Of a stretch of DNA of 46,563 bases, positions 4,059 through 9,386 are shown in pieces. Origin of the DNA: a virus (Duplodnaviria; Heunggongvirae; Uroviricota; Caudoviricetes). How positions within the stretch are numbered: the first letter of the stretch is position 1; each line of letters opens with the position of its first letter. The notes beneath the pieces are model-generated. The model worked only from the letters and a program-made list of their open reading frames with translations. It did not search any database and was not told the origin of the DNA. The stretch covers positions 1 to 46,563 of the IMG/VR virus record IMGVR_UViG_2861038214_000001; one strand, given 5' to 3'. The position numbers and the translations under genes were made by a program.

Positions 4059-4663
4059 TAAGCGGCCGCCCCTTCTAATTCGTCTCGTCTGATGTTGTAA
4101 ACGTCCTGCGCTTTTTGCTGCTCCGGTGTGCCTTCGAGCATCTTCCACGCTTTGGCGAACGCCTGTTTAAGCTCTTCCACGGTGTTTTTCTGCAATGCTG
4201 CGTCAGTGAATGCTTTTAGAACCTGTTCAGGTGTAGGTGATGGTTTTGATTGCTTTGCTGCTGCGTTCTGCTGATGTTTATGCTCGTCTGTATCTGCATC
4301 TTTCGCATCATCAATGCCGAACAAACCATTGAGGCAATACTTGCGTGCATAAGAGCTTGTAGCTCCCGTAACTTGTGCAGAATCCATTCCTTTCTTGCTT
4401 TCTTCCTCTCGTGCAAGAGCGGTTGCCGTATGGCTGTTTTCGCCATCGGTAATAGTTGCCGTGGCTTTCACGTAATACCGATCACCAATCAACACAACTT
4501 CATCGCTGATTGATAAAAACAGGCCATTCAGTAACGGCTTAACGCCTTCAAGAATGTCTTCGCAGCTTCTGTATTTATATTTACCGAATGAGTTGTACTG
4601 ATTCTTTGGCGCGTTCAAATTCTTCTGAATAGCTGCCAGTCTTGCGTAAAATTCTTTGCTCAT
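4058..4663 (-). CDS. erf: Erf-family single-strand annealing recombinase
   Basis: ORF track 4058..4693; MSKEFYARLAAIQKNLNAPKNQYNSFGKYKYRSCEDILEGVKPLL… matches Erf family (P22 Erf-like); start refined to ATG (MSKEF). Confidence 0.85.
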   Translation of the reverse strand: MSKEFYARLAAIQKNLNAPKNQYNSFGKYKYRSCEDILEGVKPLLNGLFLSISDEVVLIGDRYYVKATATITDGENSHTATALAREEESKKGMDSAQVTGATSSYARKYCLNGLFGIDDAKDADTDEHKHQQNAAAKQSKPSPTPEQVLKAFTDAALQKNTVEELKQAFAKAWKMLEGTPEQQKAQDVYNIRRDELEGAAA

Positions 4664-4673
4664 ATGATTGTTC

Positions 4674-4844
4674 TCAGAATGGACACGGCCCAAGGAAATA
4701 ACGCTGATTTAATACTTCGACTCGGGACAAATTAAGGCATACCCGCATTCCTTCGCGGTCGCCATTATGGCGATACCAGAGAGCTTTCTGCGTGTACATG
4801 CGTCTCTGTAACTTGCTCTCCTTCACTGTGGTTGCAAGTGACAT
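4674..4844 (-). CDS. small hypothetical protein (56 aa, MSLATTVKESKLQRRMYTQKALWYRHNGDREG…)
   Basis: own translation; GGAG SD 6 nt upstream; overlaps the next small ORF in another frame. Confidence 0.35.
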   Translation of the reverse strand: MSLATTVKESKLQRRMYTQKALWYRHNGDREGMRVCLNLSRVEVLNQRYFLGPCPF

Positions 4845-4923
4845 GAATATCTCCTTCGTTACCGATTAATTCTTTCATCTGACGAATGAATTCTTCGTCT
4901 GACCAGTTATCTGTAAAACTCAT
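4765..4923 (-). CDS. small hypothetical protein (52 aa, MSFTDNWSDEEFIRQMKELIGNEGDIH…)
   Basis: own translation; ATG overlaps kil stop (ATGA); C-terminal half overlaps previous ORF and may be non-coding. Confidence 0.3.
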   Translation of the reverse strand: MSFTDNWSDEEFIRQMKELIGNEGDIHVTCNHSEGEQVTETHVHAESSLVSP

Positions 4924-5072
4924 TTCCTGCGATACCATGGAAGGTTGATAGCTGATTTCATCTCTTTATTTGCTTCAAGCCACATTTTGGAATCACCAAT
5001 AAATCTGGCTATTACTGCTTTGTTTTGTGCCGCACGAAGCATCTGGTGATTGATGGCTATTTCATTGCGCAT
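4920..5072 (-). CDS. kil: Kil-like host-killing/FtsZ-inhibitor small protein (50 aa)
   Basis: own translation MRNEIAINHQMLRAAQNKAVIARFIGDSKMWLEANKEM…; FIGD-x-KM motif as in lambda Kil; GGAGG SD. Confidence 0.5.
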   Translation of the reverse strand: MRNEIAINHQMLRAAQNKAVIARFIGDSKMWLEANKEMKSAINLPWYRRK

Positions 5073-5191
5073 AACGCCTCCAGTTGTTTCTTTGCTGCTC
5101 TGATTAATTGTTTAACTCGGCGTGATAATTCAGATTCGTGCGGGTAGAAAGCGGACATGACGCCGCTACCCGCGAGCTGAAAGTGCATCAT
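5057..5191 (-). CDS. cIII: CIII-like FtsH-inhibitor small protein (44 aa)
   Basis: ORF track 5057..5296 trimmed to ATG with AAGGAG SD; …PHESELSRRVKQLIRAAKK… resembles the lambda CIII PSESLLERITRKLR core. Confidence 0.5.
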   Translation of the reverse strand: MMHFQLAGSGVMSAFYPHESELSRRVKQLIRAAKKQLEALCAMK

Positions 5192-5256
5192 GGGTAACTC
5201 CTTATATTTGATTGCATAACGAAAACGCCTCGAGTGAAGCGTTATTGGTATGCATA

Positions 5257-5281
5257 TAAAAAAGCCCTCACACTGGAGGGC
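5257..5281 (-). terminator. intrinsic terminator (GCCCTC/GAGGGC hairpin + U-run on minus strand)
   Basis: seen in sequence downstream of the 156-aa moron gene. Confidence 0.5.
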
Positions 5282-5385
5282 AAAGAAGATTTCCAATAAT
5301 CAGAACAAGTCGGCTCCTGTTTAGTTACGAGCGACATTGCTCCGTGTATTCACTCGTTGGAATGAATACACAGTGCTTATTTGTA

Positions 5386-5856
5386 CTAATAAAATACCCA
5401 ATTTTCTGTTTCTTGGTTGTGTCCAAAGTTATATTCAATATCTGGTGTTGATGTATCAATATTCTTCATCCCATCAACAAGAGTTGATACAACAGCCAAA
5501 TCTTGTTTGATTCTCATTAAATGGTATTTCTTCCGGCGCAATAAACTTTCAATGGCAAGTTTCTTCGTTGGGAATGCAAAAGATCTTTCTGCATTTTTTG
5601 CTACTTTCTTAATTGCATATCTATTTTTCCTTTGTTTCCATTCCTGTAACCACTGATTTGGTGCTGGTTTAAAATTAACAATCCAATGCGCAGGAACCAA
5701 CCATGCATAATGCTCTGTCTGATGAAAAGCTATATATTGAAGTGCGAATATTTTTATCCCATCTTCTTCAACTGTCGCCTGGAATCTCCAGAAAACAGGC
5801 ATTCCATCATGTTCAGTTTCTGATTCAGGAAAAGGTACGCTCCATGATTTTGTCAT
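5386..5856 (-). CDS. hypothetical protein (156 aa), AT-rich moron gene
   Basis: ORF track; GAGGTGAG SD; markedly AT-rich relative to flanking phage genes; no family recognised. Confidence 0.6.
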   Translation of the reverse strand: MTKSWSVPFPESETEHDGMPVFWRFQATVEEDGIKIFALQYIAFHQTEHYAWLVPAHWIVNFKPAPNQWLQEWKQRKNRYAIKKVAKNAERSFAFPTKKLAIESLLRRKKYHLMRIKQDLAVVSTLVDGMKNIDTSTPDIEYNFGHNQETENWVFY

Positions 5857-5910
5857 ATCTCACCTCAAATAAGTGGTTTGCTGCGAAAGTAAATACGCTT
5901 AAGTTACCTG

Positions 5911-6048
5911 TTATTTATCCCACCAAGTTCCGTATCTATCTATCCAGTTACACCAATCATCGACACTCCATTTTGTTGTGTCGCATTTTGGCAACTGGCA
6001 TGAATATCTACCTTCTTTGTAAAGTCGGCGTTTGACTTTCTTGAGCAT
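5911..6048 (-). CDS. small Cys-rich hypothetical protein (45 aa, MLKKVKRRLYKEGRYSCQLPKCDTTKWSVDDWCNW…)
   Basis: own translation; GAGGTGAG SD identical to the downstream gene; possible zinc-ribbon. Confidence 0.4.
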   Translation of the reverse strand: MLKKVKRRLYKEGRYSCQLPKCDTTKWSVDDWCNWIDRYGTWWDK

Positions 6049-6165
6049 GGCTCACCTCAATCGTAATAAGCCGGAATTGATTTTCCGCGTTGCTTCTGGC
6101 GGCCTGAGCAGTCAACTCTCATTTCACTGCGTGGCTTGCGGTAGTAAATTAGATTTGTTCAGACA

Positions 6166-6187
6166 ATAAAAAACCCACCGAAGTGGG
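6166..6187 (-). terminator. intrinsic terminator (tL1-like; CCCAC/GTGGG hairpin + U-run on minus strand)
   Basis: plus strand A-run then hairpin immediately after stop of 6188..6526 gene. Confidence 0.55.
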
Positions 6188-6526
6188 CTATGACCATTTT
6201 TTATTTGGATTTCGTTGGTGAGCGTGATTAACAACTCTGTGCATTACATCCTCATATTTTTCATCTTCAATTTTTTCGACATCGCGAGGAAATGGTGTTG
6301 CTAATGCTTTGTCAACTTTGTCCATTGGTTCTTCATTAATCTTATATTCAGGACCGTCATCTATAGCATTAAATCCAGGTGTTACACCGTTTTTTAATGC
6401 ATATGCTATCCTTTTTTCCCATCTCGCTATTCTCCTCCTGTCTCGAGATGTAAGACCTCTATCAGATACTTTTCTGTTTTGTCCGCGGTCAGGATTAACA
6501 TAAATAGTCTTTTTCACCATAAGCAT
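6188..6526 (-). CDS. hypothetical protein downstream of N (about 112 aa; Arg-rich N-terminus)
   Basis: ORF track 6188..6532 (TTG) with likely ATG start a few codons in; position equivalent to lambda ea10. Confidence 0.55.
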   Translation of the reverse strand: MLMVKKTIYVNPDRGQNRKVSDRGLTSRDRRRIARWEKRIAYALKNGVTPGFNAIDDGPEYKINEEPMDKVDKALATPFPRDVEKIEDEKYEDVMHRVVNHAHQRNPNKKWS

Positions 6527-6528
6527 AC

Positions 6529-6834
6529 TCAATAAGCACCGTACGGTAGTTTACTGTACAATTTTATTTTTTGGACTGCATGTATTTTGTTTCCTAACGG
6601 GTTTGAATCTTTGTAATAAATACTTCTATTTTTTCGAACGACTTCTTCTTTCTTCTTGCAGCAAAGGCTTCCTAGTGATGCTGCTTTGTCTGCTCTGACG
6701 CAACCAGAGAGCTTTAGCGCAATTTTTCGCGCCAGTGCTTCATTACTGCGTCGCTCGGCAATAAGTTCTGCTCTGCGAGCTTTGTAGCGGCTTTTTGCCG
6801 TACCTTTGGATTCTTTCCAGACAATGGTTACCAT
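6529..6834 (-). CDS. N: N transcription antiterminator, phage 21-type (arginine-rich motif GTAKSRYKARRAELIAERR)
   Basis: ORF track 6529..6864 trimmed to ATG with AAGGAG SD; ARM matches the phage 21 N peptide from memory. Confidence 0.8.
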   Translation of the reverse strand: MVTIVWKESKGTAKSRYKARRAELIAERRSNEALARKIALKLSGCVRADKAASLGSLCCKKKEEVVRKNRSIYYKDSNPLGNKIHAVQKIKLYSKLPYGAY

Positions 6835-6944
6835 GATGGTCTCCTTTAAGTGGCTTTGGCGCATGACGCGTCGAGGTGCTTATCTTCTCGATCGCTGTCT
6901 TGCAGCTGCAATTCGCGCCATCCCCAAAACCACTCAAGTTCTGG

Positions 6945-6984
6945 TCTCAACGGTTAGGTTGAGAGTCCGTCGATGTTAAAGAGC
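6945..6984 (-). promoter_or_regulatory. nutL (boxA GCTCTTTAACA and boxB hairpin TCTCAAC-CTAACC-GTTGAGA, minus strand)
   Basis: boxA near-consensus and boxB stem-loop between pL and N. Confidence 0.6.
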
Positions 6985-7029
6985 CTGCCAATCTGTTCCG
7001 TTTGGCTTCCAGCGTCCTGCTGATGGAAA

Positions 7030-7110
7030 TGATAGTCACATATTGTGATTTAATGGTCAATCACAAAATGTGTAAAATAAAGGTGTGACACGTTATGTGT
7101 ATGATTTTTT
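7030..7110 (-). promoter_or_regulatory. pL promoter (-35 TTGACC, -10 GACTAT on minus strand) with three TCACA-N3/4-TGTGA operator-like palindromes (OL)
   Basis: perfect palindrome TCACATATTGTGA plus two degenerate copies overlapping promoter hexamers. Confidence 0.5.
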
Positions 7111-7312
7111 TGTGTAAATAGTTTTACCCGCGATGGTTTTGCTTACTTAAGTCGGTGGCAACAGCAGGATGGGTGCTGAAAAGTTCGAAAAACGAGCGAA
7201 GGTGGTGGTGGCGAGATGGCGGGATATGGGAGTTGTATTAAGAATTATAGTAATTTAATCAATAGTTTGGACCGGCGGGCAGGTGCTGTCCTGATAGTGA
7301 TCGGCGGACAAT

Positions 7313-7336
7313 AAAAAACCCGGCTCGGTGGCCGGG
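7313..7336 (-). terminator. intrinsic terminator after rexB (tIMM-like; CCCGGC/GCCGGG hairpin + U-run)
   Basis: seen in sequence immediately after rexB stop. Confidence 0.6.
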
Positions 7337-7771
7337 TTATTCTTGTTCTCTGGTCAAATTATATAGTTGGAAAACAAGGATGCATATATGAATGAACGAT
7401 GCAGAGGCAATGCCGATGGCGATAGTGGGTATCATGTAGCCGCTTATGCTGGAAAGAAGCAATAACCCGCAGAAAAACAAAGCTCCAAGCTCAACAAAAC
7501 TAAGGGCATAGACAATAACTACCGATGTCATATACCCATACTCTCTAATCTTGGCCAGTCGGCGCGTTCTGCTTCCGATTAGAAACGTCAAGGCAGCAAT
7601 CAGGATTGCAATCATGGTTCCTGCATATGATGACAATGTCGCCCCAAGACCATCTCTATGAGCTGAAAAAGAAACACCAGGAATGTAGTGGCGGAAAAGG
7701 AGATAGCAAATGCTTACGATAACGTAAGGAATTATTACTATGTAAACACCAGGCATGATTCTGTTCCGCAT
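7337..7771 (-). CDS. rexB: RexB, membrane component of Rex abortive-infection/exclusion system (144 aa, about 4 TM helices)
   Basis: ORF track; size, hydrophobicity and sequence match lambda RexB as I recall it; position between cI and N. Confidence 0.8.
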   Translation of the reverse strand: MRNRIMPGVYIVIIPYVIVSICYLLFRHYIPGVSFSAHRDGLGATLSSYAGTMIAILIAALTFLIGSRTRRLAKIREYGYMTSVVIVYALSFVELGALFFCGLLLLSSISGYMIPTIAIGIASASFIHICILVFQLYNLTREQE

Positions 7772-7786
7772 AATTACTCCTGATAA

Positions 7787-8626
7787 TTAATCCTTAACTT
7801 TGCCCACCTGCCTTTTAAAACATTCCAGTATATCACTTTTCATTCTTGCGTAGCAATATGCCATCTCTTCAGCTATCTCAGCATTGGTGACCTTGTTCAG
7901 AGGCGCTGAGAGATGGCCTTTTTCTGATAGATAATGTTCTGTTAAAATATCTCCGGCCTCATCTTTTGCCCGCAGGCTAATGTCTGAAAATTGAGGTGAC
8001 GGGTTAAAAATAATATCCTTGGCAACCTTTTTTATATCCCTTTTAAATTTTGGCTTAATGACTATATCCAATGAGTCAAAAAGCTCCCCTTCAATATCTG
8101 TTGCCCCTAAGACCTTTAATATATCGCCAAATACAGGTAGCTTGGCTTCTACCTTCACCGTTGTTCGGCCGATGAAATGCATATGCATAACATCGTCTTT
8201 GGTGGTTCCCCTCATCAGTGGCTCTATCTGAACGCGCTCTCCACTGCTTAATGACATTCCTTTCCCGATTAAAAAATCTGTCAGATCGGATGTGGTCGGC
8301 CCGAAAACAGTTCTGGCAAAACCAATGGTGTCGCCTTCAACAAACAAAAAAGATGGGAATCCCAATGATTCGTCATCTGCGAGGCTGTTCTTAATATCTT
8401 CAACTGAAGCTTTAGAGCGATTTATCTTCTGAACCAGACTCTTGTCATTTGTTTTGGTAAAGAGAAAAGTTTTTCCATCGATTTTATGAATATACAAATA
8501 ATTGGAGCCAACCTGCAGGTGATGATTATCAGCCAGCAGAGAATTAAGGAAAACAGACAGGTTTATTGAGCACTTATCTTTCCCTTTATTTTTGCTGCGG
8601 TAAGTCGCATAAAAACCATTCTTCAT
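7787..8626 (-). CDS. rexA: RexA, sensor/activator of Rex exclusion system (279 aa)
   Basis: ORF track; length and sequence (MKNGFYATYRSKNKGKDK…) match lambda RexA as I recall it; AT-rich like lambda rex. Confidence 0.8.
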   Translation of the reverse strand: MKNGFYATYRSKNKGKDKCSINLSVFLNSLLADNHHLQVGSNYLYIHKIDGKTFLFTKTNDKSLVQKINRSKASVEDIKNSLADDESLGFPSFLFVEGDTIGFARTVFGPTTSDLTDFLIGKGMSLSSGERVQIEPLMRGTTKDDVMHMHFIGRTTVKVEAKLPVFGDILKVLGATDIEGELFDSLDIVIKPKFKRDIKKVAKDIIFNPSPQFSDISLRAKDEAGDILTEHYLSEKGHLSAPLNKVTNAEIAEEMAYCYARMKSDILECFKRQVGKVKD

Positions 8627-8738: not shown

Positions 8739-9386
8739 TCAGCCAAACGTCTCTTCAGGCCACTGCGCCTTAACTACCTTGCCTATGATGCGGCAGCTAT
8801 GGTCGCAATCCAGTGTTCTATATGCCGGGTTTAAAGGTACCAGGTAACTAACCCCTGCATCCTTCTCATACTTCTTGAACGTTGCCTCTGAATCACCATT
8901 TGCAGAAGCCACGCAGAAATCCCCAGACTCTACCGGCTCAGCCGGATCAACGAGTATCAGCATGCCTTCCGGAAAACTTGGACGAACCCCCTGAGGCGCC
9001 GTCATTGAATGCCCCTTCACCTCAAGCCAGAAAGCTTTTTCGCTGGCTTTTGTGGTCGTTGGGACCCATGCCTTTGCATCGCTGGCTGTGTAGCTTCCCA
9101 CCTCCGAAAATGGCCCGGCCTGCACTGAAGAAAATAACGGGTATTCATATTGGCGAAATACGGCGTCTGAATCCTCGCCAAACATTATTTTTGCCGGAGA
9201 TACGCCGAGTGCCGCCCCAAGAACCAGCGCGTCATCCGCGCTAACCTTTCTTGTTCCTAACTCGTAGTTCCCCAGGCGTGAAGGCGCAGCCCAGCCGCAA
9301 AGCTTGGCCAATTGAGCCTGGCTAAGTCCTTTAGCTTCTCTAAGGGACTTGATCCTTTCCCCGATAATTTCATGCATCGTTTTCAT
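8739..9386 (-). CDS. cI: CI-type prophage repressor (HTH_XRE N-domain, S24 LexA-like autoprotease C-domain)
   Basis: ORF track; Ala-Gly cleavage site (VQAGPF), Ser (GHSM) and Lys (FKKY) dyad conserved; divergent from cro. Confidence 0.85.

Follow-up and report, generated by a model that had tools for sequence, protein, structure and literature searches.

Layout of the Locus

The DNA analyzed here, referred to as the window, is a stretch of 46,563 nucleotides (46.5 kb) from a virus of the class Caudoviricetes (IMG/VR record IMGVR_UViG_2861038214_000001). We examined the interval between an N-like antiterminator gene and cIII, which contains the following features in leftward order:

6529..6864, minus strand: N-like antiterminator gene, first of the pL operon (phrog_271 "anti-termination protein N-like", E = 1e-31)
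6188..6532, minus strand: nun, HK022-type transcription termination/exclusion factor (phrog_5632, E = 9e-71)
6166..6189, minus strand: intrinsic terminator overlapping the nun stop codon (7-bp stem and T-run, dG -10.3 kcal/mol, z = -2.8)
6057..6143, minus strand: recombination scar in which the 3' end of an N gene of the Sf6/Bas106 type survives as noncoding DNA
5911..6048, minus strand: 45-aa gene of the DUF5484 / T-even gp55.4 family (Pfam PF17583, phrog_1871), with a Shine–Dalgarno sequence (SD) GAGGTGAG at 6058..6051
5386..5856, minus strand: 156-aa gene of the HK97 gp45 / 933W L0079 family (phrog_1636), with the SD GAGGTGAG at 5866..5859
5339..5376, minus strand: strong stem-loop (14 + 2 bp) that adjoins PreS on its 5' side and makes up the left part of "bsq4", a conserved boundary sequence known from Sf6
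5258..5342, minus strand: homologue of the Hfq-dependent sRNA PreS (LPR1), 85 nt, seed region at 5307..5291
5258..5281, minus strand: terminator tL2a, the 3' end of PreS (stem 5281..5264, six U at 5263..5258, z = -2.3)
5224..5243, minus strand: terminator-like hairpin just upstream of cIII, found by terminator scan and probably the equivalent of lambda tL2b
5057..5191, minus strand: cIII, the next gene of the operon (Pfam PF08134 cIII, E = 2e-30; corresponds to HK97 gp44)

Transcription from pL and nutL would run leftward through the N-like gene, nun with its terminator, an N scar of ~90 nt, the 45-aa gene, the 156-aa gene, the stem-loop, PreS/tL2a, the tL2b-like hairpin, and cIII. The N-like gene gives a weak Pfam N_peptide match, and upstream of it a nutL-like site could be read by eye, made up of a boxA-like GCTCTTTAA (6984..6976) and a hairpin resembling boxB (6964..6945); a pattern search for boxA returned 38 matches against 33 expected. 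An earlier reading of this DNA from its letters (the sequence-only reading) placed the two small genes downstream of N. An N-like gene is indeed present at 6529..6864, but the gene immediately upstream of the interval is nun (6188..6532). This nun is 96.5% identical to HK022 nun at the DNA level, a likeness that includes the 3' terminator, and the N–nun arrangement recurs in mEpX1 and mEp235 with >99% identity. The terminator (hairpin 6189..6172, T-run 6171..6166) accompanies nun in HK022, mEpX1, and mEp235, and on this comparative evidence it belongs to the nun module.

Between this terminator and the 156-aa gene, positions 6143..5857 of the window are 97.6% identical over 289 nt to Sf6, spanning the end of N (gene 37) through gene 36. 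The former stop codon of the N remnant overlaps the SD of the 45-aa gene. At the other end of the interval, the sequence AACGCTTCACTCGAGGCGTT of the hairpin at 5224..5243 is also found just upstream of lambda cIII, with the two copies out of register in a MAFFT alignment; the name tL2b is the one used in the lambda literature. A scan of positions 4800–7400 returned 8 terminator-like sites versus 2.2 +/- 1.4 in shuffled sequences. An Rfam search of positions 4500–7800 gave one chance-level anti-hemB match at the rexB terminator, and PreS itself has no Rfam entry. The rexAB genes also neighbor the interval. The annotation of the source strain omits cIII and PreS, as well as the 45-aa gene (PGAP).

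Two Small Genes with a Common Ribosome-Binding Site

The two minus-strand open reading frames lie exactly where the sequence-only reading had put them. Both are preceded by TTGAGGTGAG (6060..6051 and 5868..5859), and the SD GAGGTGAG within it has no further copy on either strand of the window, which bears out the claim of a common SD. Also correct were the flanking terminators (folding z of -2.8 and -2.3) and the AT-richness of the genes relative to the recombination genes: the 156-aa and 45-aa genes have G+C contents of 0.357 and 0.399, the recombination genes 0.455–0.478, and the window on average 0.502. The candidate moron has a G+C content of 0.37 (window 0.50), and nun is equally AT-rich (0.368). 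Two antisense reading frames, 5703-6035(+) and 5417-5656(+), gave no matches, so we rejected them as coding sequences.

The 45-aa protein scores 46.7 bits with Pfam PF17583 (cutoff 27), its residues 5–42 aligning with positions 3–41 of the 43-position model, and matches phrog_1871 with E = 1.4e-22. It is 100% identical to Sf6 gp36, which is recorded as "similar to T4 Orf55.4", and 52% identical to T2 gp55.4. Homologues occur in ~900 phage records, hold their length down to 33% identity, and share 11 invariant residues (K6, L9, G13, Y15, P20, W27, W32, I36, D37, G40, and W42). The three cysteines for which the protein had been called Cys-rich are not a property of the family: in the T2, Klebsiella, Aeromonas, phiE142, and Alteromonas homologues, C17 gives way to T, I, or N, C22 to G or V, and C33 to I. 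A zinc-binding role could therefore be rejected. A third homologue search with this protein returned near-identical sequences only and no informative fusions; our literature search found nothing relevant on DUF5484 and, for gp55.4, a passing mention in one transcriptome paper only. In the T2 infection transcriptome, the transcript of the 45-aa homologue was grouped with early-to-middle infection functions. As a tentative suggestion, this Trp-rich mini-protein might be a small binder of a host factor that virulent phages share as a target.

The 156-aa protein is 98.7–99.4% identical to HK97 gp45 and 933W L0079, at the same length, and matches the phrog_1636 profile over positions 1–156 of 156 with E = 1.1e-111. 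Full-length homologues of the family reach down to ~20–25% identity. The claim that the two proteins match nothing was thus overturned, for this protein by HK97 gp45 and 933W L0079 and for the smaller one by Sf6 gp36 and DUF5484. The remote-homology and structure-prediction check that the sequence-only reading proposed gave a confident model (pLDDT 95.3) and distant relatives, but neither a match among solved structures nor an assigned function. Neither the single sequence nor a 64-member alignment found a match in Pfam, NCBIfam, PADLOC, or PDB sequences, the best of PADLOC being a chance-level hit to Cas1 (E = 0.014). A structure search of BFVD gave 13 matches at E < 1e-3, all of them uncharacterised, and many phages that are unrelated to one another, both virulent and temperate, contain related folds. 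Multi-domain profile matches to P0066 and P0080 were discarded as repetitive or spurious. The PHROG matches of both proteins are all labeled "unknown function" and include no defense or exclusion family (SieB, P22 gp17). The neighbors of the distant gp45 relatives (~70 in number) include DNA methylases, a Lar restriction-alleviation gene, recombination genes, and integrase. We found nothing relevant in the literature on HK97 gp45 and 933W L0079, and a paper on the lambdoid early left operon does not discuss the gene.

Since homologues of both proteins keep their length at low identity, and since the larger one yields a model of such high confidence, both reading frames are real genes.

A Conserved Stem-Loop and the sRNA PreS

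The larger gene is followed by a stem-loop of 14 contiguous base pairs (5373..5360 with 5355..5342), a 4-nt loop, and two more pairs extending to 5376..5339. With dG of -21.7 kcal/mol and z = -6.6, it folded better than every one of 200 shuffled sequences. The hairpin is identical in lambda, HK97, Sf6, and Bas106 and shows almost no variation among 117 viral contigs; in three contigs a hairpin of different sequence stands at this place. It had been described as a conserved hairpin with a 9-bp stem, a description that is right about its existence and conservation but understates the stem.

Together with the second terminator, this stem-loop is more than punctuation, since the two bracket PreS. 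We aligned this RNA with the lambda ral–ea10 spacer, taking the limits of lambda LPR1 from the cloning and in-vitro-transcription primers in Table S5 of bioRxiv 10.1101/2024.10.31.621285. Over its first 78 nt it does not differ from lambda LPR1 (78/78), the seed and the dnaN-pairing core GUUCUGAUUA at 5306..5297 included, and it lies in the early left operon upstream of cIII. The 3' end of LPR1 in lambda is tL2a (bioRxiv 10.1101/2024.10.31.621285), and the Sf6 record labels the homologous site "terminator; homology to phage lambda; tL2A". In lambda, the RNA was detected during lytic growth but not in lysogens, and it depends on Hfq to activate dnaN and repress alaS (bioRxiv 10.1101/2024.10.31.621285). 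PreS is the one element of the interval with an experimentally established function, established in lambda. From this near-identity we infer that the PreS encoded here would also bind Hfq, activate dnaN, and repress alaS. It may be processed at the hairpin.

A Variable Cargo Slot

Across 81 viral contigs, the gene that immediately precedes the hairpin/terminator module encodes Ral (30), a gp45-like protein (14), Nmad5 (8), or a member of one of several other unnamed families. The interval from N to PreS is a variable cargo slot, and it was well founded to identify this site, between N and cIII, as the lambdoid accessory slot that ral occupies in lambda. The gene orders vary likewise: N-gp45 in HK97, N-nun-gp45-gp17 in PA28, N-gp36-ral-gp34-bsq4 in Sf6, and in Bas106 N-45aa-gp45 with another two genes before the hairpin/PreS (bsq4) module. 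The partners of the DUF5484 gene include Ral, gp45, Nmad5, and other cargos, and the PreS module is found in 325 phage records versus 83 for the gp45-like gene. The two-gene interval could be matched in 701 E. coli genomes, with both genes adjacent in only 44 of the 701; the gp45-like gene has matches in ~700 of 5,426 complete E. coli genomes. Hence an obligate pairing of the 45-aa and 156-aa genes could be rejected, and the two assort independently, contrary to the earlier description of a two-gene unit.

Ral was found with none of the 14 gp45-containing contigs and with 30 of the other 67 (Fisher p = 0.0014), a difference that is confounded because the site next to the hairpin has room for a single gene and the contigs are interrelated. 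One E. coli genome (H222) carries the order 45aa-ral-gp45. Neither protein of the interval gave a Pfam match to the Ral family PF11058; a true Ral from the same slot scores 1.7e-48.

Origin and Function of the Interval

We conclude, with a probability of about 0.78, that the interval is not an autonomous two-gene moron but a mosaic part of an early left (pL) operon subject to N antitermination. The operon lies in a lambdoid prophage carried by E. coli WI1, the source, which was matched at 100% identity. Taken together, the two protein genes are best read, with the same probability, as separate cargo modules that recombined into a variable slot between N/nun and a constant PreS/tL2a boundary. 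Every piece is a known, widely distributed lambdoid module.

According to the sequence-only reading, the interval would be a terminator-insulated moron from which the repressed prophage expresses two genes that exclude other phages or alleviate restriction. A moron, as defined for HK97 and HK022, is a promoter, a gene, and a terminator inserted between conserved genes. Several observations fit this description: terminators flank the genes on both sides, the base composition deviates from that of the neighbors, the genes are present in some related phages and absent from others, and the adjoining rexAB and nun are exclusion functions expressed in lysogens. The downstream terminator, tL2a (5281..5258), is part of the PreS module whatever gene lies upstream, however, and the upstream one belongs to nun. 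A simple consensus scan of the minus strand from 6171 to 5857 revealed no sigma-70-like site ahead of either gene, although such a scan may miss weak or non-sigma-70 promoters because AT-rich DNA can hide them. What looked like an upstream spacer is a dead N-gene fragment rather than a regulatory region. The interval is internal to the pL operon, with a nutL-like site upstream; the two genes do not form a unit, and in Sf6 the 45-aa gene sits 8 nt after N inside the operon. Moreover, T-even homologues of the 45-aa protein belong to virulent phages without lysogeny, and PADLOC gave no match. A moron in this sense is improbable. Far less probable still, and refuted by the conservation data, is that one or both reading frames arose by chance in an AT-rich spacer. 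That PGAP omits the 45-aa frame in the source genome and that neither protein has a named function would agree with it. The 45-aa frame nevertheless exceeds the Pfam gathering threshold and has 33–52% identical homologues in ~900 phages with 11 invariant residues, the 156-aa frame has full-length homologues and a pLDDT-95 model, and the antisense frames match nothing.

Within the preferred reading of separate cargo modules, the function of the 156-aa protein can be addressed from its context. Our best guess is an early host-directed accessory factor whose target, reached through a conserved basic strand-helix surface, would be nucleic acid or an acidic host protein. Counter-defense or anti-restriction is the single most likely role, though a doubtful one by itself; we lean toward it because Ral and Nmad5 occupy the same slot and because of the neighborhoods of the distant relatives. 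In its specific form, the protein would be a lytic-phase anti-restriction or anti-defense factor that stands in for Ral. Like ral, its gene directly precedes the PreS hairpin, and none of the 81 contigs has it together with Ral; Nmad5 is among the alternative occupants, distant relatives lie amid DNA methylases and the Lar gene, and many unrelated phages, virulent as well as temperate, have proteins of related fold. This support is purely positional, however, with no sequence or structural similarity to Ral or a known anti-defense protein; ral and gp45 occur together in one genome, and the same neighborhoods also hold recombination and replication genes. A substitution for Ral is possible at best. 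Somewhat less likely, the protein would be an accessory factor that binds nucleic acid and assists either the replication or recombination of phage DNA or the elongation of transcripts. More speculatively, the HK97-gp45 superfamily (PHROGs 1636, 13631, and 25384 with their structural relatives) might be a previously unrecognised anti-restriction/anti-defense fold that replaces Ral upstream of PreS, with the stem-loop as a processing signal that frees the sRNA from any cargo mRNA.

Proposed Mode of Expression

In the lysogen the region would probably be silent because pL is repressed. Nun is expressed from HK022 prophages, so that some transcription could enter the interval from upstream via nun, though the nun terminator should stop it. 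Upon induction or infection, N-modified RNA polymerase would pass the nun terminator and tL2a, so that both proteins would be made as delayed-early products. By analogy with lambda, and given the sequence identity, the transcript would be processed beside the stem-loop to release PreS, which with Hfq would pair with the dnaN leader to increase synthesis of the beta-clamp and would repress alaS, in favor of phage replication.

A new exclusion or anti-restriction moron, if true, would have been a fresh candidate for defense or counter-defense. The analysis provides instead a confident predicted fold and ~70 distant relatives with which to work on the gp45-like gene, which is carried by HK97, 933W, and many Stx phages. 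It also shows that the strictly conserved stem-loop marks the 5' edge of PreS. Because the slot is bounded by this sRNA, different cargo genes share one common 3'-UTR-derived regulator.

Comparison with Known Systems

The PreS region shares its terminator stem and its upstream stem-loop with lambda. In contrast to lambda, the U-tail (GGGCUUUUUU here, GGGCGAUUUUUU in lambda) begins right after the stem without a GA dinucleotide, the gene upstream is gp45-like instead of ral, and the module joins the tL2b/cIII region directly, without ea10. Lambda Ral occupies the same position relative to N, PreS/tL2a, and cIII, in a slot that is variable across phages, but it has no sequence or fold similarity to the gp45-like protein: Ral consists of 66 residues and contains cysteine, whereas the gp45-like protein consists of 156 and contains none.

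HK97 gp45 has the same position in the operon and is followed by the same hairpin/terminator module; in HK97 it comes directly after N, whereas here it comes after nun and the DUF5484 gene. Sf6 gp36 has the same SD and also stands at the start of the pL accessory region, 8 nt after N; in the window the 45-aa gene is preceded instead by the nun terminator and a truncated N fragment. The T-even gp55.4 homologues differ from the 45-aa protein in lacking the three cysteines. HK022 is not known to carry N, whereas here, and likewise in mEpX1, mEp235, and PA28, nun comes after an N-like gene. With morons the two genes share a sporadic distribution, a deviant composition, and a downstream terminator, but they differ from morons in that no promoter of their own was detected and in that they lie within, and are presumably expressed from, an early operon.

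Gene order around the interval

The window matches, at 100% identity, a prophage carried on the chromosome of the E. coli clinical isolate WI1 (NZ_LT838196.1). The interval 5257–6192 on its minus strand had been read from sequence as an AT-rich, terminator-flanked two-gene moron directly downstream of N.

Features in and around the interval
8739–9386, minus: cI, followed by rexA and rexB
7317–7338: strong bidirectional terminator after rexA/rexB
6984–6976, minus: nutL-like boxA GCTCTTTAA after the pL region (identified by eye)
6964–6945, minus: boxB-like hairpin (identified by eye)
6529–6864, minus: N-like gene (phrog_271, E = 1e-31)
6188–6532, minus: HK022-type nun (phrog_5632, E = 9e-71; 96.5% DNA identity to HK022 nun)
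6057–6143: dead 3'-end fragment of a second N gene, Sf6/Bas106-type, downstream of the nun terminator
5911–6048, minus: 45-aa gene
5386–5856, minus: 156-aa gene
5342–5258, minus: homologue of the lambda sRNA PreS, first 78 nt identical to lambda
5224–5243: terminator-like hairpin 31 nt upstream of cIII, same sequence as the hairpin just upstream of lambda cIII
5057–5191, minus: cIII (PF08134, E = 2e-30), left of the interval

Since nun separates the N-like gene from the interval, the latter lies downstream of nun and not directly of N. The N-like gene and nun form a tandem in which the stop of the first overlaps the start of the second (6188–6864), an arrangement shared by mEpX1, mEp235, PA28 and a set of Stx1a phages. 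HK022 itself is not known to have an N gene. In PA28 a 138-nt nun fragment is annotated as an entire "Nun-like" gene. To the left follow cIII, kil, erf and an anti-RecBCD gene, ordered as in HK97. The hairpin at 5224–5243 is probably tL2b and may contribute to the structural control that is known for cIII translation. For the source genome, RefSeq lists cIII only as "hypothetical protein" and does not call PreS (5258–5342), and PGAP omits the 45-aa ORF.

The stems of the nun and rexB terminators differ, and their 12-nt tails TTTTTTATTGTC are identical (6160–6171 and 7305–7316), which could reflect shared ancestry or chance. A weak Rfam match to the Burkholderia anti-hemB sRNA at 7310–7405 scored 19 bits (gathering score 49.5; E = 0.34); it coincides with the rexB terminator and was judged to be a chance resemblance to a terminator hairpin.

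Two genes without a detected promoter of their own

The observations of the sequence-only reading were confirmed. Both ORFs exist where that reading placed them and are preceded by the same Shine–Dalgarno sequence, TTGAGGTGAG; GAGGTGAG occurs only twice in the whole window, ahead of these two ORFs. Their G+C content is 0.36–0.40, compared to 0.46–0.48 in the recombination genes and 0.50 in the window. Our scan recovered both flanking terminators, each folding better than its shuffles, among eight terminator-like sites in the region (2.2 expected from shuffles). The hairpin behind the larger gene is also present, with a stem of 14 contiguous pairs rather than nine (5373–5360 with 5355–5342; ΔG −21.7 kcal/mol, z = −6.6).

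The interpretation of these observations was partly supported. A moron should carry its own promoter, and our scan found no sigma-70-like promoter on the coding strand from the nun terminator to either start codon. Given that nutL and an N-like gene precede the interval, the simplest model is that the genes are delayed-early in lytic growth and would be reached by N-dependent read-through of the nun terminator and of tL2a, the terminator at the PreS 3' end. This model would agree with the lytic-specific expression of PreS in lambda, and it would argue against autonomous expression in the lysogen, the property that defines a moron.

Nor do the two genes behave as a cassette. Gene orders are N-gp45 in HK97, N-nun-gp45-gp17 in PA28, N-gp36-ral-gp34 in Sf6 and, in Bas106, N-45aa-gp45 followed by two further genes and the hairpin/PreS module. 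Of 5,426 complete E. coli genomes, about 700 show a match to the two-gene interval, in almost every case by way of the 156-aa gene, and both genes are adjacent in only 44 of the 701 genomes matching 5386–6048. In viral contigs, DUF5484 genes are partnered by Ral, gp45, Nmad5 and other cargos.

A recombination scar, and not a regulatory spacer, fills the 124 nt that separate the 45-aa ORF from the nun terminator. Positions 6143–5857 are 97.6% identical to Sf6 DNA, with the match starting within the 3'-terminal part of Sf6 N, and the Shine–Dalgarno sequence of the 45-aa ORF overlaps the former N stop codon. This scar shows that the 45-aa module came from an Sf6-like operon and was joined behind nun.

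The 45-aa protein

This protein clears the Pfam threshold for DUF5484 (46.7 bits versus 27) and is 100% identical to the product of Sf6 gene 36, described in the curated Sf6 record as "similar to phage T4 gene Orf55.4". Near-identical copies are limited to about ten lambdoid-type records, and homologues with 38–54% identity occur in about 900 phage records, mainly T-even relatives. Alignment with homologues from T2, Klebsiella, Aeromonas, phiE142 and Alteromonas phages revealed 11 invariant residues (K6, L9, G13, Y15, P20, W27, W32, I36, D37, G40, W42). The three cysteines are not among the conserved positions, so the "Cys-rich" character is incidental and a zinc site unlikely. In a T2 infection transcriptome, the transcript of the T2 homologue is grouped with early-to-middle infection functions; the literature yielded no functional study. 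Alteromonas phage vB_AmeP_R8W (Autographiviridae) has an unannotated DUF5484-like ORF at 1486–1613, with the primase gene on one side and the gene for a DnaB-like helicase on the other; this ORF extends the family past T-even and lambdoid phages.

The hairpin and second terminator form a PreS locus

Taken previously as gene-flanking punctuation, the hairpin and the second terminator together constitute an unrecognized PreS locus. The 190 nt separating the 156-aa gene from cIII recur in 325 phage records, four times the count for gp45. Lambda has this sequence between ral and ea10, and in Bas106 it stands behind a different gene; the Sf6 copy carries the annotations "terminator; homology to phage lambda; tL2A" and "bsq4; boundary sequence". 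In lambda this spacer encodes the Hfq-dependent sRNA LPR1, renamed PreS, with species of about 88 and 68 nt ending at tL2a, detected during the lytic cycle but not in lysogeny; it opens the dnaN ribosome-binding site to activate translation, represses alaS and promotes the replication of phage DNA (Silverman et al., bioRxiv 10.1101/2024.10.31.621285). A 2025 review restates these findings. With bounds GAGCAAUGUCG...GAGGGCGAUUUUUUA taken from the primers of that study, the window copy differs from lambda only in the U-tail. The identical stretch includes the seed deleted in the lambda study (5307–5291) and the 10-nt core GUUCUGAUUA (5306–5297) that pairs with the dnaN leader. PreS is the only element of the interval with an established mechanism, established in lambda.

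The first nucleotide of PreS is the exact end of the large stem-loop, which is almost invariant in 117 viral contigs anchored on the PreS seed. Three IMG/VR contigs instead have, in this position, a hairpin of unrelated sequence, ATAGCAGA-loop-TCTGCTAT (sequence there: ...GCGCCTATAGCAGATTTACGAGTCTGCTATGTGAGCAATG...). This replacement hints that the PreS 5' end needs a structure rather than a particular sequence, and the stem-loop might serve, for example, in sRNA 5'-end processing or in 3' protection of the cargo mRNA.

The 156-aa protein and the accessory slot

Along its entire length the 156-aa protein fits phrog_1636 (E = 1e-111), and it is 98.7% identical to HK97 gp45 and 99.4% to 933W L0079. 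It also occurs in BP-4795, Stx2-phage 86, Min27 and many Stx1/Stx2 phages; 79 of the 83 phage records containing it show at least 95% identity. Searches of Pfam, NCBIfam, PADLOC and PDB returned no sequence match. Close homologues (55–85% identity) are confined to Enterobacterales, and profile searching across 1.8 billion representative proteins added about 70 distant relatives of 130–160 aa, none with a Pfam domain, belonging to phrog_13631 and phrog_25384 (both labelled unknown function). AlphaFold2 modeling from the deeper alignment (pLDDT 95.3, pTM 0.82) predicts a three-stranded sheet (19–55), two short helices, a short strand (83–86), a 33-residue helix (98–130) and a conserved C-terminal tail, a confidently predicted fold without a relative of solved structure. 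The protein is basic (pI 9.05), with a conserved basic stripe along strand 83–86 and the first half of the long helix.

Placement in the classical lambdoid accessory slot holds, as other contigs carry Ral or Nmad5 at the same position. In 81 contigs that extended 3 kb upstream, the hairpin directly adjoined Ral in 30, a gp45-like gene in 14, an Nmad5 protein in 8, and otherwise a member of one of several unnamed PHROG families. No contig of this sample contained both Ral and gp45 (Fisher p = 0.0014, confounded by geometry and contig relatedness), and one E. coli genome has the order 45aa-ral-gp45. Long contigs were available for five of the distant relatives, and every one of these sits in the early-left accessory region of a temperate element. 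The genes nearby include DNA methylases, a Lar restriction-alleviation gene, RdgC, a YqaJ exonuclease, SSB and integrase, with no constant partner gene among the five. The anti-restriction flavor of these neighbors makes counter-defence our leading guess for gp45.

The 156-aa and 45-aa proteins are genuine ORFans. The modules of the interval were already known, and it is an ordinary mosaic of them: the nun terminator of HK022, the gp36/gp55.4 family of Sf6 and T4, gp45 of HK97 and PreS/tL2a of lambda.
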